Part shown: positions 3,056 to 29,626 of the stretch, piece by piece
How positions within the stretch are numbered: the first letter of the stretch is position 1
How the letters are laid out: every line of letters starts with the position of its first letter
DNA from: a virus
Taxonomy: Duplodnaviria; Heunggongvirae; Uroviricota; Caudoviricetes
Length of the DNA stretch: 52,113 bases
IMG/VR virus record: IMGVR_UViG_2541047719_000006
Strand: one strand, 5' to 3'
The notes under the pieces: model-generated
Databases searched by the model: none
What the model saw: the letters and a program-made list of their open reading frames with translations, nothing else
What the model was told of the DNA's origin: nothing
Program-made: the position numbers and the translations under genes

Positions 3056-6000
3056 TCAGATGCTCAGTGCTTCAAGACGACGAAGATCAAAGTCGTTTAA
3101 TTCGTCGGTATAACTTTCGGTAATCGGTGCTGGCCAGTTGTTTGTCTCCAGGGCTTCGTTTATCTGGCGTAGCGTCCGGCGATATTCCTGTCGACCAAGT
3201 TCCAGGAGTTCCTGCGAGGCTTCCACGACTGCCACCCAGTGATAGCCAGCATCTTTGTTGACGAAGATCCAGAAAAATTTGTCCAGATTTGCCACATCGC
3301 AATACATTGCTGCGCTGAGGTGATAATCACGCTCAATAATTTCACGGTGCAGGCGATCTTTCAGTCGTTCCTGTCGCACATAACCGAGGCTGACTGACTT
3401 CACGTCGGCGCAAATGCTTTCGTATGGCAGCCGGATTTCGATATCAGGACGGACCCTGATTTCCAGCCCGGTTTCTTCATCAAACCCGAAATAGCTGATT
3501 TCAGATTTGCGATCCGGGTGGTTGAGTAGCCTTGCTGCATCAGTATTGTTTTGCAGTGCAGCGTGAATATTTTTTGCCTGTTCATACATATCTGAACTGA
3601 TAAACGTTTTCCCGGCGTTTTCTTCTTGCTGGCGTTTTTGCCAGTCCTCCAGGGTAACCAGTTCCGGGCGGATTTTCCGAGCGATTTCGGTTAATTGCTC
3701 TTTCGTGCCACTGATGTTGTAAGGCAAAGATTTAGCACGTTCTTTTTTCGCCAGTTCTGGATCTACAGTTTCAATTTGCTCCAGAAGTTGCTCCCGTGTT
3801 CCACTGGTTTTCAACAGAGGAGGGAGGTTTGCATTGTATTCTCTAATGCAGGCTTTCATTGCCGATGCAGTATGTTTCTCCTCCTCCGGAATACGCCGGA
3901 ATTCCACCGGAAGCGAACCGTAAAGGATGCCTGTTTCTTCGGCTCCAGCACTTACAGACAGTGGCTGTATAGGAGTGCTGTTGTAGCTTTCGATCCACTC
4001 TTTCATCTGCTCTGGTGTCATCAGTGCTGGCAGACTGGCATTGTGTTTTTTAATGATGGCGATCAGTTCGCTAGAAGTAGTAACCACATATTCAGGAACT
4101 GGTACCGGAATGGCATATTCATCAGCGAATTTATCCGTTTCCAGAACATAGCTGTGAATGATCCGCCCACGCAGCAGTGCATCACTTTCCTCGTTCGGAA
4201 TAGTTCCGGCAATGTGCCGTCCGTGGTAATACATCAGGCTGATACGGGCATCCTTCAGCATCGTGCTGCTTATTCCGTTGGCGGAGTGATAAACCTCGTT
4301 CGGGAGGTTTTCATAGCGGCCAGGCTCGAAATATGACGGCCACATGATTTCAGTTGCTACAGGAGCTGACGCTTCACCAGTTTCATCACTGCAATCACGA
4401 TGCGGATCGCTGCCAGCATTCTCATTGTGCGGATGTTCAGCGCCTTCCATTTCCACCGGATCTTTTTCCTTAGCTTCAACCTGATTCTCTTCATCGAATG
4501 TTTCCTGGTATGTTGCGTCGCCCGTCACCGCCCCACAGTCAGGGCAGTTATCTCCGCCAGTCTGACCGCAGGCATTGCAGACTATTTCCGGTTCCTGTTG
4601 CACTACTGGCTCAGGTTGTTTCACATCCGGGCTGGTTTTTTCCGTTTCTGGCTGGTTCTGGTACACAGAATCGCGAGTCTGGATCCCCTTAACCCATTTC
4701 GGATCGTTCGGGTCGCTAATTCCGTCAACAAATTCACCACGTGATGCAGCAAGCAATTTATCGGCATCGACAGGATTTTTTGATGGAATGTTTTTCCGGG
4801 CTTCATGGAGTTCTGCCCGCAGTTCCTGATATTTCGCATCAACAGAATTTACCTGTGACTGAGCATCCAGCGGCTGCGTGTCCTGATGATGTTTAGTTGC
4901 GTCCGGTTCCATTGTTTCAGCCTCTCCCTGTTCATCTGCCGTTGTTCCAGATGGTTGCGGTTTTTCTTCATCATCCTGTTTTCCTTCTTCTGTTACTCGC
5001 TGCGGCATCGGGGCAGAGGAGCGACCGCAGGCAATATCCACGATTTCCGGATCAGGGTTGGCATGATCGGTTTCAGTCAGTACTTTGTTCAGATATTCAG
5101 TGACGTGCGCGGGGGTGACCTCGATCCCAATTGGTGCTTCTTTTACGGACGCAACCACGATGGCGCGGGAATAATCCAGCCCGCCAGGCATGGTGATGAA
5201 TTTGTCGCGGAAAACAGAAAAGGGCGGTTTATTTTCAGCGATAATTTCCTCAATGCGTTTAGCGTGTGCCGGATGAAGGTTATAGATGTCCACGTCCATT
5301 GAACGGGCCAGTACGCCAGTGGCTACGTCGCGCGCCAGTGACGTAAGATCGTGGACGAAACCTTCGCCGCGATCGGTGAGGTTCCCGCCGCCAGCATTAG
5401 CACCGGAAGCCGTGCGAGTGATGCGTGAAACACGATTACCCTTCATCCACTCTTTTGTCAGCAGTCCTCGATCGGTGTAGTCAGCGTTCAGGTATGCTTC
5501 GAAAAAAGCAGTTAACAGTCCCAAGTCTGAATTACCAGGATTAGGGAAAACTTTGTCAGTGTCACGAACCAGTTTGTGGAGATCGCGAATTTCCAGCGGG
5601 TCGAGCAGGCTGGTTTTGTGGGAAACAGCCAGGGCAGTAACAGCCGGTAGTTCTTCAGCCCGTGCAATGTGTAATGCCTGGAGTTCGCCGCGTGAAACGT
5701 GCGTTACCGGTTTTTCGCTGCCGTGTTGAGCAAGCCAACGAATGGGCAGTTCCTGGCCAGAAATTGGGAGTAGCATATTCTCCTCAATCTCAGTCATGTC
5801 TTCGCCGTTGACGTTGGTATTGCCTTGATAGTGAGCGTTGTCTGGTGCTGCTCCCGGTTTTAGTTCCCATGTCATGGAGTCTTTGCTGAGTTGATAGCGT
5901 TCACTCCAGGTAAAATCGATCTCACCTTCAGCGGGCAGGTCATTAACGACAGGAAAATTCGTGGCAACAGCTTTAAAATAGCTGCTCAGTTTTTTACCTG

Positions 6001-8488: not shown

Positions 8489-8908
8489 TTACTCCGGTGG
8501 GGGGGTATCTTTAAGCCTGCCCCTCAAATATTTTTCTACATACTCGTCGATTTCTTTTAGCCGGACTTCAAATAGCTCAATCATTCGTTGTTGTTCTGAG
8601 CCCGGTAGCTGGTTAAACAACTCAAGAAGTTTTCGTTGGGATTCATTTAACCACAATTCAGAAGAGTCTTTTTCCCCAAAGAGGAGCTCAGGAGGAGATA
8701 TGCCCAGCGCCTTTCCCAGGACGACAGCATCATGCACTCCAACATTTCTGCTGCCCGCCTCATAGTTACCTATACGCGATTGCGTCCATCCGCAGATTTC
8801 AGCAAGTTTTCCTTGAGATAAACCAAGCTTCTGCCTGCGCTCTTTAAGACGCATTGCAATTTTGTCATTGAGCCTACTAGCGGCAATTTTTTCGTTTTCT
8901 TTTTCCAT
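8489..8908 (-). CDS. racR: Prophage repressor, HTH XRE family (RacR-like)
   Basis: 139 aa with HTH segment LGLSQGKLAEICGWTQSRIGNYE; divergent from ydaS as in Rac. Confidence 0.75.
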   Translation of the reverse strand: MEKENEKIAASRLNDKIAMRLKERRQKLGLSQGKLAEICGWTQSRIGNYEAGSRNVGVHDAVVLGKALGISPPELLFGEKDSSELWLNESQRKLLELFNQLPGSEQQRMIELFEVRLKEIDEYVEKYLRGRLKDTPPPE

Positions 8909-9004
8909 TTCGTCCTTGTATCACGAATCGTGATTTATATAAAACACAAAATAGCTTGACCGTAAAACACAAGGTGTGTTTAAAATTGTCGTCGGAGGTT
9001 TTTA
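8909..9004. promoter_or_regulatory. Divergent racR/ydaS promoter-operator region
   Basis: Palindrome ATCACGA-A-TCGTGAT at 8920..8934; inverted repeat AACACA-agg-TGTGTT at 8965..8979; TTGACC (8955..8960) with TAAAAT/TTTAAA -10 candidates; GGAGG RBS before ydaS. Confidence 0.5.
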
Positions 9005-9247
9005 ATGAACAAAATTTCAACATATCGAAAACAACTTGGTCTGTCTCAAAGACAACTCGCTGTTCAGCTAGGGTGGATACAAAGCCGACTGGCAAATTAC
9101 GAAGCAAATTTTCGTACCCCTGGGCTAGAGGAGTGCAGAAAAATTGTTTCCACCCTTAATCGGCTTGGTGCTCATTGTGGACTTGACGATGTATTCCCCC
9201 CAGACGGTAAGCATAGCGAAAACAGCATAGGAGCGGTTGATTCATGA
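9005..9247 (+). CDS. ydaS: Cro-like HTH regulator YdaS
   Basis: 80 aa; HTH LGLSQRQLAVQLGWIQSRLANYE; GGAGG RBS; first gene of rightward early operon. Confidence 0.75.
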   Translation: MNKISTYRKQLGLSQRQLAVQLGWIQSRLANYEANFRTPGLEECRKIVSTLNRLGAHCGLDDVFPPDGKHSENSIGAVDS

Positions 9248-9666
9248 AAATCAGGCATGAGCACATCGAATCAGTGTTGTTAGCCCTAGCAGCCGAAAAA
9301 GGGCAGGCGTGGGTTGCTAACGCAATTACTGAAGAATATCTGCGCCAGGGGGGCGGCGAATTGCCCCTGGTACCAGGCAAGGACTGGAACAATCAGCAGA
9401 ATATCTATCACCGTTGGTTGAAAGGTGAAACGAAAGCGCAAAGGGAAAAAATTCAGAAACTGATCCCTGCGGTTCTGGCAATTCTTCCGCGCGAGCTGCG
9501 TCACCGACTCTGCATCTTCGATACCCTGGAACGCCGTGCATTACTGGCGGCGCAGGAAGCGTTGAGTACGGCAATTGATGCGCATGATGATGCAGTCCAG
9601 GCCGTTTACCGTAAAGCATATTTCAGCGGTGGCGGGTCTTCCGACGATTCTGTCATTGTTCATTAA
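9244..9666 (+). CDS. ydaT: YdaT-like early regulator
   Basis: 140 aa; start overlaps ydaS stop; Rac synteny. Confidence 0.65.
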   Translation: MKIRHEHIESVLLALAAEKGQAWVANAITEEYLRQGGGELPLVPGKDWNNQQNIYHRWLKGETKAQREKIQKLIPAVLAILPRELRHRLCIFDTLERRALLAAQEALSTAIDAHDDAVQAVYRKAYFSGGGSSDDSVIVH

Positions 9667-9678
9667 GCAAAAGTTTTC

Positions 9679-10536
9679 ATGCTGTTTGTGCTTATTCTAA
9701 GCAACCGGGCAGCATCATACGGGGCAATTATGGCCGCATTACCATACATGCAACTGTACATAGCTGATTACCTGGCTGACACCATGCATTTGTCAGCAGA
9801 GGAGCACGGTGCGTATTTGTTGCTGATGTTCAATTACTGGCAAACAGGAAAGCCAATACCCAAAAACAGGCTGGCAAAAATTGCCCGTCTGACTAACGAG
9901 CGATGGGCTGATGTTGAACCATCCTTGCGGGAGTTTTTTTGCGATAACGGCGAGGAATGGGTGCATCTTCGGATTGAGGAAGATCTGGCATCAGTCAGGG
10001 AAAAATTAACCAAAAAATCAGCCGCAGGAAAAGCATCTGTTCAGGCCAGAAGAAGCAGAAAGGAAGCAGATGTTCAAACAAAACAAGAGAGAAATTTAAC
10101 AGGTGTTCAAACAGATGTTGAAGTGGTGTTTGAACATGATGTCAACACAAAGGCAACTAATAAAGATACAGATAAAGATCTAAAAACAGATCCCCCCCTA
10201 AATCCCCCCCGGGGGAATCGAGGTGTCAAAAAGTTTGACCCTCTGGATATTGCTTTGCCGAACTGGATTTCTGTCTCGCTTTGGCGTGAGTGGGTTGAAT
10301 TTCGCCATGCATTGCGTAAACCGATTCGAACGGAGCAGGGCGCTAACGGGGCGATACGGGAGCTGGAAAAATTCCGCCAGCAGGGTTTTACCCCTGAGCA
10401 GGTGATTCGACATAGCATCGCCAATGAATACCAGGGCTTGTTCGCGCCGAAAGGTGTTCGGCCTGAGACGTTGCTCAGACAGGTTAACACCGTCTCGTTG
10501 CCGGACAGTGCGATCCCGCCAGGCTTCAGGGGGTAA
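9679..10536 (+). CDS. ydaU: YdaU-like replication-associated protein
   Basis: 285 aa; precedes DnaC-like gene; alternative start 9730. Confidence 0.65.
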   Translation: MLFVLILSNRAASYGAIMAALPYMQLYIADYLADTMHLSAEEHGAYLLLMFNYWQTGKPIPKNRLAKIARLTNERWADVEPSLREFFCDNGEEWVHLRIEEDLASVREKLTKKSAAGKASVQARRSRKEADVQTKQERNLTGVQTDVEVVFEHDVNTKATNKDTDKDLKTDPPLNPPRGNRGVKKFDPLDIALPNWISVSLWREWVEFRHALRKPIRTEQGANGAIRELEKFRQQGFTPEQVIRHSIANEYQGLFAPKGVRPETLLRQVNTVSLPDSAIPPGFRG

Positions 10537-10542
10537 CGAACC

Positions 10543-11289
10543 ATGAAAAATATTGCGACAGGCGGCGTTCTGGAACGCATCCGCCGACTGACCCCGCCAC
10601 ATGTAACCGCCCCATTCAGAACGGTAGCGGAGTGGCGCGAGTGGCAACTTGCTGAAGGCCAGAAACGTAGCGAGGAGATCAACCGCCTGAATCGCCAGTT
10701 GCGGGTGGAAAAAATTCTGAATCGCTCAGGCATCCAGCCGTTGCACCGTAAATGCTCGTTTGTGAATTACCAGGTGCAGAACGACGGCCAGCGATACGCG
10801 TTGAGTCAGGCAAAATCTATCGCTGACGAACTGGTTACCGGATGCACAAATTTCGCGTTTAGCGGAAAACCTGGTACCGGGAAGAACCACTTAGCAGCAG
10901 CTATCGGGAATCGCCTGCTGAAAGACGGTCAGACAGTGATTGTGGTTACCGTGGCTGATGTTATGAGTGCCCTCCACGCCAGCTATGACGATGGGCAGTC
11001 AGGCGAAAAATTTTTGCGGGAACTGTGCGAAGTGGATCTGCTGGTTCTTGATGAAATTGGCATTCAGCGCGAGACGAAAAACGAGCAGGTGGTACTGCAC
11101 CAGATTATTGATCGACGGACAGCGTCGATGCGTAGCGTGGGAATGCTGACAAACCTGAACTATGAGGCCATGAAAACATTGCTCGGCGAGCGGATTATGG
11201 ATCGCATGACCATGAACGGCGGGCGATGGGTGAATTTTAACTGGGAGAGCTGGCGTCCAAATGTCGTCCAGCCAGGAACTGCGAAGTAA
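10543..11289 (+). CDS. ydaV: DnaC-like replication helicase loader ATPase
   Basis: 248 aa; Walker [12 protein letters not shown] and Walker [10 protein letters not shown]. Confidence 0.8.
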
Positions 11290-11311
11290 TTTTTATCGGG
11301 AGGAAATTTTA

Positions 11312-12025
11312 ATGGAGACTGTTTTTGACGCACTGAAAGCAATGGGAAAAGCCACATCCATAGAACTTGCTGCGCGACTTGATATCAGTCGTGAAGAAGT
11401 GTTGAACGAACTATGGGAACTGAAAAAAGCTGGTTTCGTTGATAAAAGCGCGTACACCTGGCGTGTGGCTGATAACAACGTTCAGCAGGAACAGCCAATG
11501 CAGGCAGAACTGCCGGAAGAAACCACCACGGCAACAGTAGCGAAAATCTCAGAGTGCGATTTAACCGCGACGATTGAACAACGCGGACCACAAACGGCGG
11601 ATGAACTGGCTACGCTGTTCGGTACCACATCCCGCAAAATTGCTTCAACGCTGGCAATGGCAATCAGCAAAGGACGCCTGATTCGCGTAAATCAGAACGG
11701 TAAATTTCGTTACTGCATACCGGGCAATAATTTACCAGCAGAGCCGAAAGCTGCATCGGTAACGGAAACTGATTTTAAAGCCTTTCCTCAGCCAGCAGGT
11801 GTTGCGTTGCCGGTACAGAAAGATGCAACACAGGAAGATATTAAAACAGAAACTGTGGCGGACATTGTGCAGTCGCTGCACATGGCAAACCGTGAGCTGC
11901 GCCGGGCGAAAAATCATGTCCAGAAGTGGGAGCGTGTCTGCGCCGCGCTGCGGGAGCTGAACAAGTACCGGGATATTGTTCGACAGATTACTGATTCTTC
12001 TCGCTGTGTTGCATCGGAAAAGTGA
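11312..12025 (+). CDS. ydaW: YdaW-like prophage protein
   Basis: Start at ATG 11312 with GGGAGG RBS (METVFDALK...); Rac synteny. Confidence 0.55.
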
Positions 12026-12040
12026 TTGCCGGAGGCGCTT

Positions 12041-12457
12041 ATGGCAAAAGTATTTACACAAGAAGAGCGGGAAAAAATCAAGGGACAGGTTGTTGAGCTA
12101 GTACGCCGGAGTGGGCGCGAGACGTTACGGCAACTGGAAGCCAAGACAGGTGCGACAAGATATCTGATGAGCGTTCTCGCCAGAGAGCTGGTTGCCAGTG
12201 GCGATGTATACAACTCTGGCTACGGGTTATTCCCGTCTGAACAGGCTCGTAAGGACTGGCAAAATGCCCGCAAAAAACTATCTAGGGCAAAGGTGAAGAA
12301 ACCATCTGTGGTTGATCCGGACCTTATCTGGTCATTACCTGACGGAGAAATACGTCGTTATGACAGGCACCAAAACATAATTTGCTGTGAGTGCCGGAAG
12401 AGCGAAGTTATGCAGCGCATACTGGCATTTTATCAGAGAAATTTTCGTTATTTATAG
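12041..12457 (+). CDS. Hypothetical protein
   Basis: 138 aa from ATG 12041 with GGAGG RBS; basic C-terminal half with CCEC; no family recognised. Confidence 0.4.
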   Translation: MAKVFTQEEREKIKGQVVELVRRSGRETLRQLEAKTGATRYLMSVLARELVASGDVYNSGYGLFPSEQARKDWQNARKKLSRAKVKKPSVVDPDLIWSLPDGEIRRYDRHQNIICCECRKSEVMQRILAFYQRNFRYL

Positions 12458-12620
12458 ACGTTACTCGATTAAAGAGCATTAGTTCAGATGTGAATTGACA
12501 TTTTCACGGCACAGGATTGAGCTAGCGTGGTTGTCTGCTTTGTGTCAAAAGCAGATATTACCAGATTTAGACATCTATTCCCGATAGCCCTGCTCTGATG
12601 CTACACTCTGTGCTATTTTC

Positions 12621-13307
12621 ATGACCCCAATAAAAATATTTATGACTATTGCTGATTTCAAACGGCCTAAATTGGAGCTCCCAAACGGGGCAAACAAACT
12701 ACTACTGCACTCTTGCTGTGCTCCATGTTCCGGTGAAGTGATGGAGGCGCTTCAGGCCTCGGGAATCGACTATACCATCTTTTTCTACAACCCGAACATT
12801 CATCCTCAGAAAGAGTATTTAATTCGTAAGGATGAGAATATTCGCTTTGCTGAACAACACGGCGTGCCATTTATTGATGCTGATTACGACACAGACAACT
12901 GGTTTGAACGTGCCAAAGGAATGGAATGGGAGCCCGAGAGGGGGATCCGTTGTACCATGTGTTTTGACATGCGTTTTGAGCGGACAGCGCTGTACGCTGC
13001 TGAAAATGGTTTCAGTGTGATCAGCAGTTCACTGGGCATTTCACGCTGGAAAAATATGCAGCAGGTTAACGACTGTGGGCGGCGAGCCGTCGCGCATTAT
13101 CCGGGCATGGTGTACTGGGATTATAACTGGCGCAAGCAGGGCGGCTCGTCCCGCATGATTGAAATCAGCAAGCGCGAAAAATTCTATCAGCAGGAATATT
13201 GTGGCTGTGTGTATTCTCTGCGCGATACCAATCTACACCGCAAATCTCAGGGACGCCCTCTTATCAAAATTGGTCAACTCCACTACGGTAAAGAAGAGAA
13301 GGAGTGA
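12621..13307 (+). CDS. DUF208/QueH-like epoxyqueuosine reductase family protein
   Basis: Motifs [42 protein letters not shown] match remembered QueH conserved Cys pattern; alternative start 12642; TTGACA hexamer at 12496. Confidence 0.55.
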
Positions 13308-13544
13308 TTTTATGGAGCACCTTTCTTATTGATTTCATATTGGCGAGGTAGCGGGAGTTAAGTAAAATTGCTGCGGGTGCTTGAGGCTATCTGCCTCAGG
13401 CATGAACACCAAAAGGCAGATAGAGAAAAGCCCCAGTTAACATTACGCGTCCTGCAAGACGCTTAACATTAATCTGAGGCTCAATCTATGCTGAACACAT
13501 GTAGGTTAGCCTCTTACGTGCCGAAAGGCAAGGAGAAGCAGGCT

Positions 13545-13700
13545 ATGAAGCAGCAAAAGGCGATGTTAATCGCCCTGATCGTCATCTGTTTAACCGTCAT
13601 AGTGACGGCACTGGTAACGAGGAAAGACCTCTGCGAGGTACGAATCCGAACCGGGCAGACGGAGGTCGCTGTCTTCACAGCTTACGAACCTGAGGAGTAA
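13545..13700 (+). CDS. hokD: Hok/Gef family type I toxin (HokD/RelF-like)
   Basis: 51 aa MKQQKAMLIALIVICLTVIVTALVTRKDLCEVRIRTGQTEVAVFTAYEPEE; AAGGAG RBS; in-frame upstream extension to 13488 in ORF track. Confidence 0.8.
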   Translation: MKQQKAMLIALIVICLTVIVTALVTRKDLCEVRIRTGQTEVAVFTAYEPEE

Positions 13701-13768
13701 GAGACCGGGCGGGAGAGTAATCTCCCGCCACCTCTGATATGTCAGGCATCCTCAACGCACCCGCACTT

Positions 13769-13790
13769 AACCCGCTTCGGCGGGTTTTTT
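13769..13790 (+). terminator. Rho-independent terminator after hok
   Basis: AACCCGC-ttcg-GCGGG followed by TTTTTT; identical copy at 14609..14630. Confidence 0.6.
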
Positions 13791-13908
13791 CACGTACTGT
13801 GGTTGTGAATACGATTGGTATTAGGCTATGCTAACAACATTAGCCTGACTAATTTTGTATTGACTTAATTTTTGTTAAAGAACAGGACGGAGAAGTAAGG
13901 GTACACCA

Positions 13909-14088
13909 ATGAGCTACGCACTAAAAAAACACCCGCGATTGACTATTCCCCCTCGCGATAAAAGCGTTGTGGCAGCTCCGCGCCCGGCTATCGATGAAAA
14001 TTGCACTCATCGTGAGCAGGTGAAAAATGCTTTCGATTTCGGTTTTTCTCGTTACGAGAAGGCAATGGAAGATCTTTCAAAAGTGTAA
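13909..14088 (+). CDS. Small protein, candidate antitoxin partner of Doc
   Basis: 59-aa ORF read by hand (MSYALKKHPRLTIPPRDKSVVAAPRPAIDENCTHREQVKNAFDFGFSRYEKAMEDLSKV); ends 18 nt before Doc start; not in ORF track. Confidence 0.35.
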   Translation: MSYALKKHPRLTIPPRDKSVVAAPRPAIDENCTHREQVKNAFDFGFSRYEKAMEDLSKV

Positions 14089-14106
14089 TGATGGGTATTG
14101 TGCTCT

Positions 14107-14592
14107 ATGGCTGAGATTGTTGAAGGAGTGCACTACCTTTCGGTTGATGATCTTACTGAAATTAATCGCCTTTTAATTGAGCTTCAAACACCAGATGAAC
14201 CTGTTGGTGTGCTGAGTGTTGATAATTTAAGTTCTTCTCAGTCTCGTCCCAGTATGGTTCGATGGTATGAGCAAACCAACGACATGTTTGTACTGGCATC
14301 GGTATTGATTGAAAGTCTGATTCAGAATCATCCATTTGCCAATGCAAACAAGCGCACAGCAATGATGGCTGGTGCGGTTTTTTTATTGTTAAATGGATAC
14401 GAATTAACCGCACCAGGCGATGAAGTTGTGGAGATGGCTGAGGGGCTGGCCTGTAAAATTTATACACGAGAAGAGCTTGAAAATTGGTTGTGTTATTGGT
14501 CTCGTGCGTATGACAGTCGGGAATTATGTAAAACAGGCGCAACTATTGTTTTGTATGAAACTATCAAGCTTAAAATAGAACAGCAAAACTAA
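14107..14592 (+). CDS. Doc (death-on-curing) family toxin, Fic fold
   Basis: Motif HPFANANKRTA matches Doc signature H-x-F-x-(D/N)-A-N-K-R (P1 Doc HIFNDANKRTA); ORF track start 14098 is TTG, ATG at 14107. Confidence 0.7.
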   Translation: MAEIVEGVHYLSVDDLTEINRLLIELQTPDEPVGVLSVDNLSSSQSRPSMVRWYEQTNDMFVLASVLIESLIQNHPFANANKRTAMMAGAVFLLLNGYELTAPGDEVVEMAEGLACKIYTREELENWLCYWSRAYDSRELCKTGATIVLYETIKLKIEQQN

Positions 14593-14608
14593 AGATGCTT
14601 CTAATGAA

Positions 14609-14630
14609 AACCCGCTTCGGCGGGTTTTTT
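14609..14630 (+). terminator. Rho-independent terminator after doc
   Basis: AACCCGC-ttcg-GCGGG followed by TTTTTT, identical to 13769..13790. Confidence 0.6.
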
Positions 14631-14815
14631 GTTGCGTGCTGAATATGCAGGGTGAAAAATAACCATATATTTGATTATATACACAGCCAAAAATAAAAGT
14701 CATTGTACCTGCACATTAAACAATCAAATATACGACGTGAAATAAATATTTTTCAGATTAATATTTTTGTCTCTATGTGGATATAACCTTTTGTACTTAT
14801 AAACCTGGAGGCATC

Positions 14816-15028
14816 GTGGAAAAAATAAAGAAACTATTTAGTAGCAAATACGCAGTCATACGTCGTGATGACCTGTCAGTTATAGTCGAAATGGATTACT
14901 TCCCTGAAACCCCAAAATCAATGATGTATCGTAATGGTCGAAAGGCAATTTTTTTACCGATGAGGGTAAGTGACATTATGGGAAATGATAAACTGCTGGA
15001 TGAATTGCGAGTCAGAGCATCCTGTTAG
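14816..15028 (+). CDS. Hypothetical protein
   Basis: GTG start at 14816 with GGAGG RBS 5 nt upstream; 70 aa; no family recognised. Confidence 0.35.
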   Translation: MEKIKKLFSSKYAVIRRDDLSVIVEMDYFPETPKSMMYRNGRKAIFLPMRVSDIMGNDKLLDELRVRASC

Positions 15029-15099
15029 TATTGGCATTAATTCTGATATACTACATAACGGGCTGAACACCCATTCTACTGCGCCAGCGGAGAACTACG

Positions 15100-15699
15100 A
15101 TGGCGCATATACAACTGGTCAAACAAACCTCTTCCGGATTACTTCTCCCGGCGACGCCGGAGAGTTGCGATTTTCTGCATCAAATCAAAATAGGCGAGTG
15201 GATACACGCTGACTTTAAGCGTGTTCGTAACTACGCATTCCACAAGCGTTTTTTCAAACTCCTGCAATTGGGATTCGATTACTGGACTCCGGCCGGTGGG
15301 GCGATCACGCCTCGCGAACGAGAACTGGTGTCCGGTTTCGTTGATTTCCTGTGCGAATCAGTAGGTCGGGAACATACGCCAGCCCTGAGTGATGCCGCAG
15401 AGCAATACCTTAACACCGTTGCGACTCGCAGAACCCGGGATACGGCATTACTCAAGTCATTTGACGCTTTCCGCGAGTGGGTAACCATTCAGGCTGGATT
15501 TTACACCGAGCATTTTTATCCTGATGGTAGTCGTGGGCGTCGGGCGAAATCCATCGCGTTTGCGAATATGGACGAAACCGAGTTTCAGCAGGTTTATAAA
15601 TCTGTACTGAATGTGCTGTGGAACTGGATTCTGTTCCGTAAATTTTCCTCTCCGGAACAAGTCGAAAATGTGGCCGCGCAGCTACTGGAGTTTGCGTAA
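15100..15699 (+). CDS. DUF1367 family protein (YbcN-like, nin-region)
   Basis: 199 aa; position and size match lambdoid YbcN-type proteins upstream of YbcO and Q; identified by synteny and memory only. Confidence 0.5.
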   Translation: MAHIQLVKQTSSGLLLPATPESCDFLHQIKIGEWIHADFKRVRNYAFHKRFFKLLQLGFDYWTPAGGAITPRERELVSGFVDFLCESVGREHTPALSDAAEQYLNTVATRRTRDTALLKSFDAFREWVTIQAGFYTEHFYPDGSRGRRAKSIAFANMDETEFQQVYKSVLNVLWNWILFRKFSSPEQVENVAAQLLEFA

Positions 15700-15989
15700 T
15701 GGTGGATTTACGTAAAGCGGCGCGGGGCCAGATGTGCCAGGTCAGAATCCCTGGCTACTGCAATCACAATCCCGAAACTTCTGTGCTGGCGCATTACAGG
15801 TTGGCAGGGACGTGCGGAACAGCGACAAAACCACACGATATGCAGGCAGCGATTGCCTGTAACTCATGCCACGATTTAATCGACGGGCGGGTAAAAACCA
15901 GCGATTACACCAAAGAAGAATTACGCCTGATGCATGCAGAAGGTGTTTTTCGCACGCAAGAAATCTGGAGAAAGGAAGGTTATTTATGA
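15699..15989 (+). CDS. DUF1364 putative nuclease (YbcO-like)
   Basis: 96 aa with multiple Cys/His (CQVRIPGYCNHN, CNSCHD); start overlaps previous stop (TAATG); precedes Q. Confidence 0.5.
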   Translation: MVDLRKAARGQMCQVRIPGYCNHNPETSVLAHYRLAGTCGTATKPHDMQAAIACNSCHDLIDGRVKTSDYTKEELRLMHAEGVFRTQEIWRKEGYL

Positions 15990-16522
15990 TTTACCCAACA
16001 AATACAGGCAAAAGCGGGGAACACCTTCGTCTCACCACGCTGGAAAGTGTCTGGATTCAGGGAAAACTGCGCATGTGGGGGCGCTGGTCGTATATTGGCG
16101 GCGGTAAGACGGGGAATATGTTTAACCAGTTGCTGGCGTCAAAAAAATTGACGAAAACAGCCATCAATGAAGCCCTGCGCAGAATGAAAAAAGCGGGAAT
16201 AGAGAAAGCTGAGCTGGAAGCGTTTTTGCGAGAGATGATCAACGGCAAGCAAAAGAGCTGGCTGGCGCATTGTACTGATGCAGAGGCACTAAAAATTGAT
16301 AGTGTTATAGGTGAAGTTCTGGCGGATCATCCAGGACTACTAAATGTCCTGAGTCAGCGTTATGTGGGGCGAGGGATGAGTAAGAGAAGGATGGCCGAGT
16401 TATTAAACGAACAGTACCCAGAGTGGGCGTTGATTACATGCCGACGTCGTGTTGATCAGTGGTTGCGTGTTGCTGAGTTCATTTTGTATTCACCTATGAG
16501 AGAAGCGTTCGATTATGCTTAA
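15986..16522 (+). CDS. Late-gene antitermination protein Q-like
   Basis: 178 aa from ATG 15986 (AAGGAAGG RBS, ATGA overlap with previous gene); immediately upstream of terminator, tRNAs and lysis cassette. Confidence 0.55.
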   Translation: MIYPTNTGKSGEHLRLTTLESVWIQGKLRMWGRWSYIGGGKTGNMFNQLLASKKLTKTAINEALRRMKKAGIEKAELEAFLREMINGKQKSWLAHCTDAEALKIDSVIGEVLADHPGLLNVLSQRYVGRGMSKRRMAELLNEQYPEWALITCRRRVDQWLRVAEFILYSPMREAFDYA

Positions 16523-16618
16523 AAAAGCATTGCAAAATGAGCCACAAACTGCTTCAATTTCGGTACGCTTCGCATAGCTGTATCGCGAGGCAAATTAAGC
16601 GCATGAACTTTAATACAA

Positions 16619-16645
16619 CCCGCCATTGAGCGGGTTTTGTTGTTT
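16619..16645 (+). terminator. Candidate tR'-like terminator downstream of Q
   Basis: CCCGC-cattga-GCGGG followed by TTTTGTTGTTT, about 95 bp after Q stop. Confidence 0.45.
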
Positions 16646-16884
16646 CTGTGGCGTGATATCAGAAACGACATTTAATAATCGCCTTCAAAATAAATTTGTT
16701 TATACATTGTCATGTATATTTTAAGTGAAAGTGAATTATTCACATAAAATAAAAACACATAAATAAATTTACATAACTTGACGCAAAGTGTTGTTGCGAT
16801 TGGAATATTAAATCGTATCATCGAAAACGGTTCTGAGGGGGAACTCTTCTTTGCTCGGTGATATCGCTCCCCTGAAGAACCAAT

Positions 16885-16960
<76 letters not shown>

Positions 16961-16963
16961 TAT

Positions 16964-17038
<75 letters not shown>

Positions 17039-17399
17039 GCATTTGAAACAAGCCTTATTGTATTGCGGCACTGGCGTATTTTTTTATTACGTGGGAGCAG
17101 GTTGTTTTGAAAAAGCATTCTGTTCTCTGGCTATGATTTGAGGCCGGGTGTAGCCTCAGTGCTGATTTTTTACGGCAGCAGAATGGTGCATTATCGGTGG
17201 AGATTTTGTATTTCCTGGCAGGGTCGGTGATGCATCATTCTGGTGTTGTAAAAGCACCGCAGAGGCGTTCCTCAGGGCGAGGGTGGTTTAAAGAGTCGGT
17301 TTAGCGGGAAACCACAGTATCCATACGGCACGGAATACTTCGGGAGGCACCCGACACCTCGGTTTTATAACAATTAAATAATTCATCCCTTAATTGACC

Positions 17400-17425
17400 A
17401 ACCGCCGTATCAGGCGGTTTTTTTT
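17400..17425 (+). terminator. Rho-independent terminator in the tRNA-to-holin leader
   Basis: CCGCC-gtatca-GGCGG followed by T8. Confidence 0.55.
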
Positions 17426-17814
17426 ATTCCTTTCTCAGGACAAAAAAATACACGAGCATCCAGGAATACTCGTGGGACAACGTCCTTTGGATAGCAATTT
17501 GCGAGAGGGTGAAAAGTAGCGCGGTCGTCGGATTAAGACCGCGGGACAAAGTCCATGAAGAAGAATAAGTATCGGTCTCCTTCCGGAGACGAGTTGATAT
17601 TACTAAGCTTTAAAAATGGTTTAAATCCTCAGATCAACCTTAATTTCAGATAAGGTTTATTTCATTTTCTCCGCGTCACATCCGACGCACATCACATCAG
17701 ATAACACCACACAAAAGGCATCTGCGGGTGTCTTTGACGGGGTGTTTTTTACGGGCCGCTGGTGGCCATTTTTTGTTTCCATTACACAGCGCCCGCATCT
17801 GCGAGGTGGGGGTT

Positions 17815-18030
17815 ATGAAATCCATGGATAAGTTAACAACGGGTGTCGCCTATGGCACCTCCGCAGGCAGTGCTGGCTACTGGTTTTTACAGCTGCTCGA
17901 TAAAGTCACGCCCTCACAGTGGGCAGCAATAGGTGTGCTGGGTAGCTTGGTATTTGGCCTGCTGACGTACCTGACAAACCTTTATTTCAAGATTAAAGAA
18001 GATAAGCGCAAGGCTGCGAGAGGTGAATAA
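17815..18030 (+). CDS. Holin, phage 21 S21-type pinholin with dual start
   Basis: 71 aa [26 protein letters not shown]... resembles S21 pinholin; Met-Lys-x-Met dual-start motif; GAGGTGGGGG RBS; ORF track start 17728 is an upstream extension. Confidence 0.8.
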
Positions 18031-18527
18031 TGCCTCCATCATTACGAAAAGCCGTTGCTGCTGCTATTGGTGGCGGAGCAATTGCTATAGCATCAGTGTT
18101 AATCACTGGCCCAAGTGGTAACGATGGTCTGGAAGGTGTCAGCTACATACCATACAAAGATATTGTTGGTGTATGGACTGTATGTCACGGGCATACAGGA
18201 AAAGACATCATGCTCGGTAAAACGTATACCAAAGCAGAATGCAAAGCCCTCCTGAATAAAGACCTTGCCACGGTCGCCAGAGAAATTAACCCGTACATAA
18301 AAGTTGATATACCGGAAACAACGCGCGGCGCTCTTTACTCGTTCGTTTACAACGTGGGCGCTGGCAATTTCAGAACATCGACGCTTCTTCGCAAAATAAA
18401 CCAGGGCGATATCAAAGGCGCATGTGATCAGCTACGTCGCTGGACATATGCTGGCGGTAAGCAATGGAAAGGTCTCATGACTCGTCGTGAGATTGAGCGT
18501 GAAATCTGTTTGTGGGGTCAGCAATGA
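18030..18527 (+). CDS. SAR endolysin (lysozyme, phage 21 R-type)
   Basis: 165 aa; N-terminal signal-anchor-release segment [18 protein letters not shown] followed by lysozyme-like domain; start overlaps holin stop. Confidence 0.85.
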
Positions 18528-18988
18528 ACAGAGTAACCGCGATTATCTCCGCTCTGGTTATCTGCATCATCGTCTGCCTGTCATGGGCTGTTAATCATTA
18601 CCGTGATAATGCCATTACCTACAAAGCGCAACGCGATAATGTGAAGGAAAAACTCAACCAGGCGACCGCAATCATTACTGACATGCAGATACGCCAGCGT
18701 GATGTTGCTGCACTCGATGCAAAATACCTGAAGGAGTTAGCTGATGCGAAAGCTGAAAATGATGCTCTGCGTGATGATGTTGCCGCTGGTCGTCGTCGGT
18801 TGCACATCAAAGCAGTCTGTCCGTCCGTGCGTGAAGCCACCATCGCCTCCAGCGTGGATAATGCAGTCTCCCCCAGACTGGCAGACACCGCTGAACGGGA
18901 TTATTTCACCCTCCGGGAACGACTGGTAATGATGCAGGCCCAACTTGAAGGTGCTCAGCAATACATAACCGAACAGTGTTTAAAGTAA
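18524..18988 (+). CDS. Spanin inner-membrane subunit Rz
   Basis: 154 aa from ATG 18524 (ATGA overlap with endolysin); N-terminal TM helix then coiled-coil region. Confidence 0.8.
18744..18929 (+). CDS. Spanin outer-membrane lipoprotein Rz1, embedded in Rz
   Basis: 61-aa ORF in +1 frame inside Rz; lipobox LVVVGC; proline-rich; AAGGAG RBS 7 nt upstream. Confidence 0.75.
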
Positions 18989-20720: not shown

Positions 20721-21512
20721 ATGAGCGAGAAATTGAAGATCGTCTATCGCCCTTTACAAGAACTGTCTCCGTATGCACACAACGCCAGGACACACAGCCC
20801 TGAGCAGGTGGCACAACTGGTAGAAAGCATTAAGCAATTCGGCTGGACTAATCCGGTGCTGATTGATGAAAAGGGCGAAATTATTGCTGGTCACGGTCGC
20901 GTTATGGCGGCTGAAGTGCTCAAAATGGATTCCATTCCGGTCATCGTTCTGTCTGGTTTGATGGATGATCAGAAAAAGGCGTACCGCCTGGCAGATAATC
21001 GCCTGCCGCTGAACGCTGGCTGGGATGAAGAACTGTTGCGGATGGAGCTGTCGGAGCTAATCAATGCTGATTTTGATATCTCCCTGACAGGATTCAGCCC
21101 GACAGAAATTGATGAACTGTTGACGGATGTTTTGCCAGGTACAGGAAATGAGGAGGAGCCGTACACGACGAAAATTGATACGCCTGTTTATGAGCCGTCG
21201 GGCGATAAACCGGACATCAGTGAGCTGTACGACGATACGAAAACTCAGGAGCTGATCAGCCGGATACGTTCGGCGTCCCTTGAGCCCGATATCGAAAAAT
21301 TCCTCCTGTGCGCGGCAGAACGCCACACGGTGTTTAATTTCAGCAGAATTGCGGACTATTACGCTCACGCCCCCGCTGAAATTCAGTGTTTTTTCGAGGA
21401 GTCGGCGCTGGTGATCATTGATTATCAGCAGGCTATTGAAAATGGATTTGTCCGGATGACGCAGCGCATGGTGGAGATCATGCATGGTGGTGAGGAGGAG
21501 GAATATGCGTGA
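20721..21512 (+). CDS. ynaK: ParB-like nuclease domain protein (YnaK-like, full length)
   Basis: 263 aa; N-terminal ParB/Srx-like segment VYRPLQELSPYAHNARTH ... GHGRVMAA; Rac synteny after trkG. Confidence 0.7.
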   Translation: MSEKLKIVYRPLQELSPYAHNARTHSPEQVAQLVESIKQFGWTNPVLIDEKGEIIAGHGRVMAAEVLKMDSIPVIVLSGLMDDQKKAYRLADNRLPLNAGWDEELLRMELSELINADFDISLTGFSPTEIDELLTDVLPGTGNEEEPYTTKIDTPVYEPSGDKPDISELYDDTKTQELISRIRSASLEPDIEKFLLCAAERHTVFNFSRIADYYAHAPAEIQCFFEESALVIIDYQQAIENGFVRMTQRMVEIMHGGEEEEYA

Positions 21513-22437
21513 TGATTTTTGCGCCTTTATTCTGACTCACGGGCGACCGGACAAAGTTCTGACTTACCGGACGTTGCGTCGTGCTGGCTATACCGGGAAA
21601 ATTTTTATCGTTGTTGATGATGAAGATAAGACACGGCATCAGTACATGGCTGAATTTGGTGAACAGGTGCTGGTGTTTTCCAAAGCCGATATCGCCAGTC
21701 GTTTTGACGAAGCCGATAATTTCGGTGACCGCCGCTCAATTTTTTACGCCCGTAATGCCTGTTTCGACCTGGCAAAACTGGTCGGGTGTAAATACTTCAT
21801 TCAGCTCGATGATGATTATCACGAGTTCCAGTTTCGGGTGGATCGCAACTATGACCAGGCCTATTTTCCGATAAGGAAACTGGATGCGATCCTTTCTGAA
21901 ATGCTGGCGTACTACGAATCAATACCTGCTCTTTCCATCGCTATGTCGCAGGGCGGGGATTTTCTTGGTGACAATGGCGGCCATGCTTCGTGGGTGAAAC
22001 GCAAGGCAATGAACAGCTTTATCTGTTCGGTTGATCGACCGTTCTCATTCATGGGGCGCATTAACGAGGATGTGAATACGTACACGAATCTCGGTCGCTG
22101 TGGTGAATTGTTTATGACGATCGGTGCTGTCCAGTTAGGGCAGAAACAGACGCAGAAAAACAGCGGCGGAATGACCGAGCTGTATCTGGATTCCGGAACC
22201 TACGTTAAAAGTTTTTACTCCGTCATGTATGCGCCGTCGTGCGTAAAAATCTCACTGATGGGTGCCAGCCATAAACGCATTCACCATCAGGTCACCTGGA
22301 ACAACGCTGCAGTAAAAATCCTTCACGAAAAATACAGGAAGAAGACACCCTGCATATCAATAGGGGTGACAAATGATTCCGTATTCGAAAGTCGAGTCTC
22401 TGGCAGCGTGCCGGATGACTGCACAACAAATCGCTGA
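21505..22437 (+). CDS. Hypothetical protein with GT-A glycosyltransferase-like motifs (YdaY-like)
   Basis: Start ATG 21505 after GAGGAGGAGG; FILTHGRP ... IVVDDED ... ARNACFDLAKLVGCKYFIQLDDDY resembles GT2 N-terminal strand and DxD motif; alternative start 21484. Confidence 0.45.
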   Translation: MRDDFCAFILTHGRPDKVLTYRTLRRAGYTGKIFIVVDDEDKTRHQYMAEFGEQVLVFSKADIASRFDEADNFGDRRSIFYARNACFDLAKLVGCKYFIQLDDDYHEFQFRVDRNYDQAYFPIRKLDAILSEMLAYYESIPALSIAMSQGGDFLGDNGGHASWVKRKAMNSFICSVDRPFSFMGRINEDVNTYTNLGRCGELFMTIGAVQLGQKQTQKNSGGMTELYLDSGTYVKSFYSVMYAPSCVKISLMGASHKRIHHQVTWNNAAVKILHEKYRKKTPCISIGVTNDSVFESRVSGSVPDDCTTNR

Positions 22438-22624
22438 CGTTCTGGATGTTGATCTGAACCGACTGAAAGAAAATCGGGAAGCAATGACAGATTTTTATGC
22501 GGCCATCCGTAAGGGCAGAGCGAAAGGTGAAGCCGAGTTACGAGCGGCATTGTTTAAGCTTGCCAGAAAAGGGGATGCCTTTGCTCTGCGCGAACTACTC
22601 AGGGTGGATAAAAATCAGGACTAA
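22373..22624 (+). CDS. Hypothetical small protein upstream of terminase
   Basis: 83 aa; AGGGGTGA RBS; overlaps 3' end of upstream gene by 65 nt. Confidence 0.35.
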   Translation: MIPYSKVESLAACRMTAQQIADVLDVDLNRLKENREAMTDFYAAIRKGRAKGEAELRAALFKLARKGDAFALRELLRVDKNQD

Positions 22625-22627
22625 CTG

Positions 22628-23722
22628 ATGAGCAGACCGGACTGGGGGGCGTTGCAGCAGGAGTATATTGCTGAATACACCCGCTCCGGTATATCTCCGG
22701 TGGCATGGTGTGAAGCAAGGGGACTGAATTACGCAACAGCCCGTCGTTACATCAAAAAACCTCCGAAAAATGCGCAGACAGAAATGCGCAAAACTGCGCA
22801 AAAAAGTGCGCAGAAAAAATCTGCGCAGACTGCACAAAAGCGGAACGAAAAATCTCAGGAAAAAAAGCCAGTATTCGATGCGGGCCTGAATGAGGGCGAC
22901 GCGGAGGAATTTTCGTTCTGTCCCGATGAATTCGGCATTTCTGACCAGCAGGCTAAGTTTGCGATGCTTGTTGCTCAGGGGAAAAAGCCGACAGAGGCGT
23001 ACCGACTAGCCGGTTATGAGGGGCAAGGTGCGACAGCTAACAGCAACGCCAGTCGTATGCTTAGAAATGCCAGGGTTTTTCGCGCTATCAGCTACTTCCG
23101 CAATCAGTACCAGAAACGCTATACCGCAGACCTGGATTTACTGGTGAGTCAGTTGATGGCCATTGTCCTGGCCGACCCCAATCAGCTTGCACAATTTCGC
23201 CGTGTTAACTGCCGTTATTGCTGGGGCGAGAATCATCTCTACCAGTGGCGCGATATAGCAGAATTCGACAAGGCAGCGGCGCAGGCTTCCAGAGATGGCA
23301 AACCCGAACCGGAATATGGAGGCCTCGGCTTTGTTGATAACGCCATACCCAATCCGGACTGCCCGAAGTGCTGCGGTGAGGGAACGGGACAGCTTTATAT
23401 GGCTGATACCACTCTGCTTGATGGGGATGCGCGGCAATTATATGCAGGGGCAAAACTCGGAAAATTCGGCGTTGAGATCCTGCTGGAGGATAAGGCTGCC
23501 GCCCGGCGTGAATTGTTGCGTTTGCTTTCTGCTGGCGGGGCTTTATGTGCAGATAAGCGGCTACAGGAACTGGAAATTGAACGACGCAGAATGGAAAACC
23601 AGAAGCTGCGCAAAGAGATCGAAACGGTGGAAGATAATGAACATCCCCAGCCTGTGGCGATCAATATTAATGTGGTTGATGCCAGAGTAAGGAGTGATGA
23701 AGATGATCTCTCCGACGCTTAA
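22628..23722 (+). CDS. Terminase small subunit
   Basis: 364 aa; segment AKFAMLVAQGKKPTEAYRLAGY typical of TerS; directly upstream of large terminase. Confidence 0.7.
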   Translation: MSRPDWGALQQEYIAEYTRSGISPVAWCEARGLNYATARRYIKKPPKNAQTEMRKTAQKSAQKKSAQTAQKRNEKSQEKKPVFDAGLNEGDAEEFSFCPDEFGISDQQAKFAMLVAQGKKPTEAYRLAGYEGQGATANSNASRMLRNARVFRAISYFRNQYQKRYTADLDLLVSQLMAIVLADPNQLAQFRRVNCRYCWGENHLYQWRDIAEFDKAAAQASRDGKPEPEYGGLGFVDNAIPNPDCPKCCGEGTGQLYMADTTLLDGDARQLYAGAKLGKFGVEILLEDKAAARRELLRLLSAGGALCADKRLQELEIERRRMENQKLRKEIETVEDNEHPQPVAININVVDARVRSDEDDLSDA

Positions 23723-25004: not shown

Positions 25005-25006
25005 TT

Positions 25007-26413: not shown

Positions 26414-27509
26414 ACGGCTGCGTGATGAATCAATTGCTCATGCAGTCTGGATATCCCGCTATAGCACTGGTGTGGCTGCCAGAATGGTGAAAATACTGAA
26501 TGACAGCGATGCGGAGCTTACAGCTCGCCTGCTGGTAGCACTGGACAGCCTCGATCCTGGTAGTTTTACCGTTACGCGCCTGGAGTCACTTCTGGCGAGT
26601 GTCAGAGAGGTTAACCGCGCTGCTATTAACAGCATGTTTACCAGTCTCTCCGGAGAGCTGAACGAGCTGGCAATTTATGAGGCTGGTTATCAGTTAAGTC
26701 TGTTTGATTCTCTGCTACCTGATTTTGTTGCTGATGTTCACCCTCTGGTTGGTATATCTTCTGATGCACTTTACGCCGCTGCAATGGCGCGACCATTCCA
26801 GGGACGACTGCTCAGTGAGTGGGCCTTGGATCTTGAGGCGGATCGGCTCAGACGCATAACAAATACGGTGCGTCAGGGTTTTTTGCTGGGGGATACCAAT
26901 GAGCAGATCGCAAGAAAAATTCGGGGACATGTCAGCAAGGGATTTCAGGATGGTGCATTGCAGATGAGCCGGGCTAATGCGGCCAGCATTGCAAAAACAG
27001 CGGTTGGACATCTTGCTGCTACTGCCCGTGAGAGTTTTGCCAGCGCGAATAATGATTTGATTAAGGGTAAGCAATGGTTATCAACGCTTGATAATCGTAC
27101 TACGCCACAATGTCGAATCAGGGATCGCCTCAAATATACGCTGGATAATAAACCTGTAGGTCACAGTGTGCCTTATTTGCATGGGCCGGGAAAAATTCAT
27201 TTCTGCTGCCGCTCAACGGAAACGTTCATTCTGAAATCAGCGAAGGAACTGGGTATTGATGTTCGTGATATTTCCCCGGCTGAGCGGGCCAGCATGGATG
27301 GCGTGGTGGCCGGAGATACAACCTACAGGGAATGGTTTTTGCGTCAGCCTTACACCAGACAAAAACAGATTGTGGGGGAAACCCGGGCAAAGCTGATTCG
27401 GGATGGCGGTATGTCGCCAGATGAATTTTACACCGATAAAGGCGAATGGCTGACGCTGAAGCAACTCCGTGAGCGTGATGCACAGGTATTCAGAAAAGCA
27501 GGGATTTAA
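26394..27509 (+). CDS. Head morphogenesis protein (Mu F / SPP1 gp7-like)
   Basis: 371 aa; start overlaps portal 3' end. Confidence 0.6.
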   Translation: MMQTVNERLRDESIAHAVWISRYSTGVAARMVKILNDSDAELTARLLVALDSLDPGSFTVTRLESLLASVREVNRAAINSMFTSLSGELNELAIYEAGYQLSLFDSLLPDFVADVHPLVGISSDALYAAAMARPFQGRLLSEWALDLEADRLRRITNTVRQGFLLGDTNEQIARKIRGHVSKGFQDGALQMSRANAASIAKTAVGHLAATARESFASANNDLIKGKQWLSTLDNRTTPQCRIRDRLKYTLDNKPVGHSVPYLHGPGKIHFCCRSTETFILKSAKELGIDVRDISPAERASMDGVVAGDTTYREWFLRQPYTRQKQIVGETRAKLIRDGGMSPDEFYTDKGEWLTLKQLRERDAQVFRKAGI

Positions 27510-27529
27510 ATAAATCATTTATTACAACA

Positions 27530-27553
27530 GGCTACCTTCGGGTGGCCTTTTTT
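27530..27553 (+). terminator. Intrinsic terminator-like hairpin inside late operon
   Basis: GGCTACC-ttcg-GGTGGCC followed by TTTTTT. Confidence 0.5.
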
Positions 27554-29616: not shown

Positions 29617-29626
29617 ACATTCAAAC

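Follow-up and report, generated by a model that had tools for sequence, protein, structure and literature searches.

The window analyzed here, the whole stretch of 52,113 nucleotides of IMG/VR virus record IMGVR_UViG_2541047719_000006, is DNA of a Rac-family lambdoid prophage of Escherichia coli, and the part in question is the interval 12041-15028 between the ydaW-type replication gene and the genes leading to Q. Five units follow each other there, namely an open reading frame (ORF) for a 138-residue protein (ORF138), a gene for a QueH homologue, a hok/sok locus, a gene for a 59-residue protein together with doc, and a second small frame of 70 codons (ORF70). The five units do not form one system; they are independent modules that make up an ordinary mosaic within the early-right operon of this Rac-type lambdoid prophage. 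By family and position, ORF138 closes the replication module, and ORF70 most probably encodes the small antirepressor of this prophage. An earlier note, made from the DNA letters without database searches, had placed the ORFs at coordinates that were confirmed, and it had described these two as being without any recognizable motif. This description has to be given up, as both fall into recognizable phage families.

The interval and its immediate flanks (12026-15100) are 100% identical to a segment of the E. coli K56-43-un chromosome and 99.8% identical to APEC O1. The RefSeq annotation of the fully identical chromosome runs in the order ydaT, ydaU, ydaV (DnaC-like), DUF1627, DUF977 (which is ORF138), QueH, HokD, a 59-residue hypothetical protein, the Doc-family toxin, a 70-residue hypothetical protein (ORF70, starting with GTG at 14816), DUF1367, DUF1364/YbcO, DUF1133/Q, two tRNA genes and the lysis genes. 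Among 5426 complete E. coli genomes, only nine contain the five units in exactly this combination, and 4817 have fragments of it. Such rarity of the whole, together with the wide spread of its fragments, is the signature of a mosaic and not of a conserved cluster. The earlier note had spoken of an accessory stretch in the nin-equivalent position that K-12 Rac has lost, and both observations are borne out. The mosaic occupies the corresponding part of a Rac-like prophage, and the alignment with K-12 Rac covers window positions 9238-11761 and restarts at 18544, with 11762-18543, and thereby the entire interval, being deleted. The K-12 gene ydaW is truncated within the DUF1627 gene. The features are collected in Table 1.

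Table 1. Coordinates of the genes and sequence elements in and around the interval (nt, nucleotides; aa, amino acids; positions refer to the window).
Feature	Position	Strand	Description
Immunity repressor	8489..8908	-	short DicA/GtgR-type, 139 aa; HTH_3 only; predicted target of ORF70
DUF1627 protein (ydaW-type)	11261..12025	+	Pfam DUF1627 E 3.9e-76; penultimate gene of the replication module; RefSeq start 11312
ORF138	12041..12457	+	DUF977/Ren-like, 138 aa; GGAGG Shine-Dalgarno 6 nt upstream; start 15 nt past the DUF1627 stop
QueH homologue (epoxyqueuosine reductase)	12621..13307	+	Pfam QueH E 1.9e-65, 220.6 bits; RefSeq start 12642
hok/sok type I toxin-antitoxin locus	13375..13700	+	mok 13488-13700, hok 13545-13700
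Terminator copy 1, AACCCGCTTCGGCGGGTTTTTT	13769..13790	+	22 bp, 3' end of the hok mRNA; fold -11.9 kcal/mol
59-aa protein	13909..14088	+	phrog_2208 E 5e-42; no Pfam match; presumed antitoxin
Doc-family toxin (Fic fold)	14107..14592	+	TIGR01550 120.6 bits (cutoff 38.65); Pfam Fic; motif HPFANANKR read from the translation
Terminator copy 2	14609..14630	+	identical to copy 1; 3' of doc; fold -14.9 kcal/mol, z -4.2
ORF70 leader	14633..14815	+	AT-rich, 183 nt; one degenerate LexA-like 16-mer, TTGATTATATACACAG, at 14671-14686
ORF70	14816..15028	+	70 aa, GTG start, GGAGG Shine-Dalgarno; phrog_1813 E 1.3e-34; candidate small antirepressor
irsA homologue (DUF1367)	15100..15699	+	Pfam DUF1367 E 1e-97; 55% identity to Gifsy-2 STM1020 (irsA), E 2e-76

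Scans of Pfam, NCBIfam and PADLOC gave no match for ORF70 and likewise none for 56 members of its family. Its only match, phrog_1813, carries the label 'unknown function', and RefSeq lists the protein as hypothetical. One relative bears a precomputed PF27490 label, an entry absent from the Pfam copy that was scanned, and truncated versions of 45 residues (P0015, P0016) are named 'bacteriocin' in NCBI records, for which neither sequence nor context gives support. According to an exhaustive hidden Markov model search, the family is small, with 23 representatives when grouped at 50% identity and 313 clusters when grouped at 90%. The matches that carry an organism name come nearly all from Enterobacterales, to which a phage search added records of Aeromonas and Actinobacillus phages. 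Comparison with a divergent E. coli copy indicates purifying selection (pN 0.19, pS 0.77 for nonsynonymous and synonymous differences), the GTG start is kept by five out of six relatives in other strains and genera, and, as in ORF70 itself, a Shine-Dalgarno sequence precedes this codon in the relatives of four other genera. The AlphaFold2 model, with a predicted local distance difference test score (pLDDT) of 85.7, consists of four strands and a C-terminal helix.

The downstream side of ORF70 is constant. In all ten E. coli contexts that were read, the gene lies 71 nt upstream of the DUF1367-YbcO-Q genes, and the irsA homologue, as the first gene of this conserved block, delimits the antirepressor slot on its downstream side. 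The relatives in Enterobacter, Brenneria, Salmonella, SPN3UB and an Aeromonas phage are situated just upstream of DUF1367, NinB or RusA-type genes that again lead to Q, and the spacing between ORF70 or its relatives and these genes amounts to 40-140 nt. Two Klebsiella-type prophage remnants make an exception, as other genes intervene there before the DUF968-Q block. The upstream neighbor is variable and can be hok, Doc, dinI, a methylase or a PIN toxin pair; in the largest branch of the family it is dinI, about 40 nt away.

A gene with this setting is known from the Gifsy prophages, in which small antirepressors bring about induction (Lemire, Figueroa-Bossi & Bossi 2011, PMC3121763). These antirepressors were mapped to a short ORF that begins with GUG and is flanked by dinI and irsA, with the GUG codon being noted for GftA, GfoA and GfhA, and the same study described the Gifsy repressors as resembling DicA and RacR and reported GfoA homologues outside Salmonella (PMC3121763). 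The gfoA primers in its Table S1 encode the termini MSNSALQ... and ...RRLGYRVTPPSDI, and Gifsy-2 STM1020.1n was confirmed as GftA (PMC3121763). A BLAST comparison of a 40-nt gfoA primer arm with the phage collection led to gp55 of Salmonella phage SEN34 and gp49 of coliphage mEp237 (37/38 matches); an exact-match scan of the viral contigs with this arm returned nothing. Both genes are located between dinI and an irsA homologue, and their products read VSDSALQ...RRLGYRVTPPSDN.

These two GfoA-like proteins connect ORF70 with characterized antirepressors. The profile of the ORF70 family aligns with SEN34 gp55 over 72 columns (hhalign 98.1%, E 1.1e-13), and ORF70 alone finds the same protein with a BLASTP E of 8e-5. 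Furthermore, gp55 and gp49 match both phrog_340, which is the PHROG of Rem (E 1e-20), and phrog_1813, which is that of ORF70 (E 1e-11), and the ORF70 family aligns with a combined alignment of Rem and GfoA-like sequences (87%, E 3.8e-6). Rem of K-12 is itself in phrog_340, and rem fills the same slot after the hokD terminator in Qin. For Rem, experiments have demonstrated a 165-fold derepression of the dicB promoter, which DicA controls (Ragunathan et al. 2023, PMC10448788). ORF70 shares with this superfamily the homology via GfoA-like relatives, the slot before irsA outside the immunity region, the GUG start and the presence of a short non-cleavable repressor in the same prophage. We think that ORF70 is most probably the small antirepressor of this prophage and a divergent member of the superfamily that includes GfoA of Gifsy-1 and Rem of Qin.

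The predicted target is the 139-aa immunity repressor, in which a domain scan detected no peptidase S24 or self-cleavage domain. Along its entire length it shares 30% of its residues with K-12 DicA (E 2e-15), it has the C-terminal motif LL.LFNQLP in common with GtgR of Gifsy-2 (E 1e-6), and it is unrelated to K-12 RacR. O157:H7 NE1092-2 and ZYB62, which bear ORF70 together with different cargo, have repressors that are identical to each other and 98% identical to the one in the window; despite this repressor identity, the ORF70 of ZYB62 is only 66% identical. On the Rac-like backbone, the repressor and the gene in the slot form recurring pairs, with the 139-aa repressor and ORF70 being found together in three prophages, a DicA-type repressor and Rem in two, and GtgR and GftA in one; Rem is held by Rac-like or Qin prophages that have a DicA-type repressor. 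Two perfect palindromes, TCACGAATCGTGA (8921-8933) and AACACAAGGTGTGTT (8966-8980), are located between the repressor gene and a Cro-like gene and are candidate operators.

Once made, ORF70 would bind the DicA/GtgR-like repressor and remove it from its operators, whereupon the early operons would be derepressed and the prophage would be induced. We infer this physical contact between repressor and antirepressor, and also the signal that would switch ORF70 on.

Several points weigh against the assignment of ORF70 as an antirepressor. The role is deduced from sequence and position, and the bridge to the characterized GfoA consists of close relatives that were picked by 20 primer-encoded residues and not by a full published sequence. 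Direct comparisons of ORF70 with K-12 Rem, with the 'Rem' of phage record MN652886 and with GftA gave nothing, the alignment with K-12 Rem alone being not significant and GftA having no similarity, and the link emerged only via the GfoA-like intermediates. The E. coli clade ends in VRASC and is without the C-terminal GYRV that marks the wider family, the structural model found no significant match in the PDB or BFVD, and a sequence search of the PDB was empty. The leader neither contains a conserved LexA box nor shares any 8-mer with the immunity operators. Finally, the covariation of repressor and slot gene was seen in six prophages, and common ancestry is a confounding factor in it.

The LexA-like 16-mer in the leader of ORF70, TTGATTATATACACAG, has one core mismatch and 12 of 20 consensus matches, and its CAG half-site reads CAA in three other E. 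coli loci. A perfect CTG-N10-CAG LexA box is present about 35 nt upstream of dinI in all eight dinI-linked relatives. LexA control of the promoter belongs to the Gifsy-type operon. As the leader in E. coli has no conserved box, this branch appears to be uncoupled from LexA. Expression of ORF70 may instead come about by early-right read-through, be it as a feed-forward lock or in an FsoA-like cross-talk, or it may follow another signal. On its minus strand, the leader has two matches to sigma-70-like promoters (14674-14756), one of them ATGACT-18-TATAAT with 10/12 positions matching; both face the doc terminator, and an antisense or short RNA is conceivable there.

The same features would suit a reading in which ORF70 belongs to the GfoA/Rem family without inducing its own prophage, acting in trans on the repressors of other resident prophages or serving as a feed-forward lock after the onset of early transcription. 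The leader, which has neither a conserved LexA box nor a separate operator, and the location of the gene inside the early-right unit downstream of terminators are compatible with this, and there are precedents in FsoA of Fels-1, which is controlled by the phage repressor and not by LexA, and in the cross-acting GfoA and GfhA (Lemire et al. 2011, PMC3121763). We nevertheless consider it unlikely, as ORF70 and the 139-aa repressor co-occur in all three prophages that were checked, which fits a cognate pair, and an effect on heterologous repressors would be argued by analogy with the Gifsy and Fels cases.

We would only tentatively suggest a broader picture, in which phrog_1813 represents a third, unannotated branch of the small-antirepressor superfamily that in E. 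coli has been freed from dinI and LexA and has come to lie behind hok-type terminators, where it could function in non-SOS induction or as a read-through switch for feed-forward or cross-talk. If this were true, a signal other than SOS would induce the Rac-like prophages that carry the 139-aa repressor, or ORF70 would link co-resident prophages. Outside E. coli, the coupling with dinI can be seen in the Klebsiella-type contigs (L032-L035, around 3226-3760), where a LexA-boxed dinI and GfoA-family pair persists in prophage remnants that neighbor defense genes (SIR2 and AAA_31; KwaA/KwaB) and a LexA_DNA_bind-DUF968-Q block, which suggests that the pair was kept after the decay of the remaining phage.

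ORF138 can be assigned with the help of two family matches. It scores 103.8 bits against Pfam PF06163 (DUF977; cutoff 22.1, E 1e-29), and it matches phrog_142, the 'Ren-like exclusion protein' (E 4.6e-46), to which lambda Ren is likewise assigned (E 1.6e-41). ORF138 and Ren have a C-terminal motif in common, NIICCECRKSEVMQRILAFY and NLVFKECRQSAAMKRVLAVY, respectively, which is detected with BLASTP (E 1e-5) and hhalign (73%). The AlphaFold2 model, computed from a shallow alignment, has a helix-helix-helix-hairpin in residues 7-64 (pLDDT about 90), which we read by eye, without a fold search, as a winged helix, and DUF977 has been assigned to the winged-helix fold before (Kinch et al. 2009, PMC2686095). 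What speaks against a close equation with Ren is that, beyond the common PHROG, the similarity is confined to the motif of 20-23 residues, and that the C-terminal half of the model is of low confidence.

The position of ORF138 points in the same direction as the family matches. It follows DUF1627 in seven of the nine E. coli contexts in which DUF1627 is visible, and in mEp237 as well as in Enterobacter prophages, Ren-like genes are likewise found 3' of replication genes of the lambda P type. It is therefore this synteny with replication genes that makes ORF138 the tail of the replication module and not a partner of QueH or hok. Judged by sequence and synteny, ORF138 ends the module ydaU-ydaV-DUF1627-DUF977 and corresponds to lambda ren in both position and family. 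Its product probably binds DNA or else a replication or exclusion partner, as is supposed for Ren.

Lambda Ren mutants are sensitive to Rex exclusion, and Ren is named an exclusion protein both in PHROG and in the lambda record. The suggestion of the earlier note that one or both ORFs might be defense or anti-defense factors therefore has its stronger case in ORF138, which could protect the phage from Rex-type exclusion as Ren does, given the common PHROG and C-terminal motif and the interaction of Ren with Rex proteins in a two-hybrid assay (Thomason et al., bioRxiv 2021.04.19.439022). The same preprint, however, views Ren as 'likely involved in DNA replication', neither ORF138 nor ORF70 matched a PADLOC defense model, and ORF138 is syntenic with replication genes and not with defense cargo; a Ren phenotype of DUF977 proteins would be an analogy. 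We regard a defense function of either ORF as improbable, and what survives of this suggestion is the likeness of ORF138 to Ren.

The proposal that the two ORFs are partners of the neighboring toxins fares worst, as ORF138 travels with replication genes, and for ORF70 as an antitoxin, regulator or chaperone of Doc or Hok, to which its distance of 224 nt downstream of Doc and the appearance of VapB antitoxins among the top Foldseek matches in the PDB (non-significant, E > 3.9, TM about 0.3) might have pointed, the co-occurrence counts in complete E. coli genomes (Doc upstream in 16 of 175 ORF70 loci, ORF70 downstream in 16 of 125 Doc cassettes) effectively refute it. A strong terminator moreover separates Doc from ORF70, Doc already has the 59-residue partner, Hok is controlled by the sok RNA, and in other genera the gene that precedes the ORF70 relative is dinI or a methylase gene and not a toxin gene. 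The family relationships, the gene position, the repressor type and the independence of the toxins are established by this analysis.

The other three units, QueH, hok/sok and the 59-residue protein with Doc, are self-contained accessory modules, and their identification in the earlier note is confirmed by the profile scores (Table 1). QueH is a stand-alone gene whose presence or absence is independent of its neighbors. It has two in-frame ATG starts (12621 and 12642, the latter used by RefSeq), both without a Shine-Dalgarno sequence. The E. coli host normally uses QueG, and we found no paper on a prophage-borne QueH. The hok/sok locus, named hokD by RefSeq, matches Rfam sok with 119.6 bits (threshold 59) and Pfam HOK_GEF with 81.6 bits. 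A sub-threshold Rfam match to IsrK, a small RNA of Salmonella Gifsy-1, covers 13709-13790 over the full model length (25.7 bits, gathering threshold 50). It spans the 3' end of the hok mRNA and the terminator and may reflect a common ancestry of terminator-proximal RNA elements; a parallel to the IsrK-orf45-anrP locus was dropped, as that locus is organized differently. The 59-residue ORF, 18 nt upstream of doc, accompanies Doc in every context examined and is therefore taken to be its partner. It is presumed to be the antitoxin of Doc, a role inferred from this co-inheritance, and a Pfam scan gave no match to Phd/YefM.

The earlier note had ascribed to each of the five units its own ribosome-binding site and terminator, which is too generous. 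A Shine-Dalgarno GGAGG precedes ORF138 and ORF70, and none is obvious before QueH or Doc. Terminators are clear only 3' of hok and doc. These two copies were missed by the consensus terminator scan, in which the stem extension absorbed the T-run, and both were checked by folding. A 10-bp hairpin without a U-tract lies 3' of ORF138, and no terminator-like structure was detected by sequence scan and folding 3' of QueH or ORF70.

The terminator AACCCGCTTCGGCGGGTTTTTT, which is also found 3' of hokD in K-12 Qin, marks the ends of the Doc cassette, an 840-bp insertion (13791-14630) that is bounded by the two 22-bp copies and carries the 59-residue gene, doc and the second copy. In alignments with Doc-less prophages, the hok terminator leads straight into the ORF70 leader, and the BLAST breakpoints across E. 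coli genomes at 14608-14612 and 14632-14634 fall exactly on the terminator element. The cassette was inserted at the hok terminator, which is now present on either side. The element serves as a joint for recombination, where the cassettes that lie between hok and the irsA block are exchanged; besides Doc, a RelE/HTH pair (HTH, helix-turn-helix) with an ORF6N gene is found at this joint in O104:H4.

Further downstream, two tRNA genes (Thr and Gly according to RefSeq, 16885-17036) are located just behind the Q-like gene and before the lysis cassette. The segment 18544-20974 is 96.7% identical to the stretch of K-12 Rac that reaches from the rzpR/rzoR remnant across trkG and into ynaK, and the gene for the potassium transporter, trkG, is thus present in this fuller Rac-family prophage as well. 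A further relative deletion in K-12 Rac corresponds to window positions 20975-32533.

Taking these findings together, we consider it likely that the interval is a run of independent modules, with ORF138 being the DUF977/Ren-like end of the replication module and ORF70 a small antirepressor. What had looked like a cluster is a recombination-prone slot in which toxin-antitoxin cassettes are exchanged at a common terminator sequence, and it is not a defense island. Ragunathan et al. (2023) left the question whether further prophages whose repressor is DicA-like and non-cleavable have an antirepressor of their own, and the Rac-family prophage described here provides such a candidate in a slot that is deleted in K-12 Rac. 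To a specialist this will be unsurprising, because Lemire et al. had already noted GfoA homologues outside Salmonella, and the value lies in an improved annotation and a clear experiment rather than in a new principle.

A comparison with known systems places the modules as follows. As in Phd/Doc of phage P1, a Doc-family toxin with the HxFx(D/N)ANKR motif has a small ORF upstream, but the 59-residue protein is without detectable Phd/YefM similarity, and the cassette is a prophage accessory pair between duplicated terminators. Lambda Ren and ORF138 have in common PHROG 142, a similar, putative HTH-type N-terminus, the motif ECR.S..M.R.LA.Y and the place directly after replication genes. They differ in length, as Ren has 96 residues and ORF138 has 138, with an additional helix and a linker, in the preceding genes, which are O/P for Ren and the YdaU/DnaC-like/DUF1627 module for ORF138, and in the Pfam scan, where Ren stays under the DUF977 threshold and ORF138 is above it.

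Rem of Qin occupies the same kind of slot as ORF70, between a hok terminator and the first gene of the Q-leading block, with alignable flanks, and it has a DicA-like repressor as its target type, which is predicted for ORF70; an SOS control is evident for neither. The two belong to PHROG 340 and PHROG 1813, respectively, have no pairwise similarity and are linked via the GfoA-like intermediates, and the repressor paired with ORF70 is only 30% identical to DicA. GfoA and GfhA of Gifsy-1 and Gifsy-3 have dinI upstream, whereas ORF70 has hok and Doc, and ORF70 possesses neither a conserved LexA box nor the GYRV tail. GfoA-like proteins and ORF70 share only about 33% identity over the N-terminal half, and the function of ORF70 is predicted. 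In their size of about 70-80 residues, in the GUG start, in the position directly upstream of irsA and in the short non-cleavable repressor of the prophage, GfoA, GfhA and ORF70 agree.

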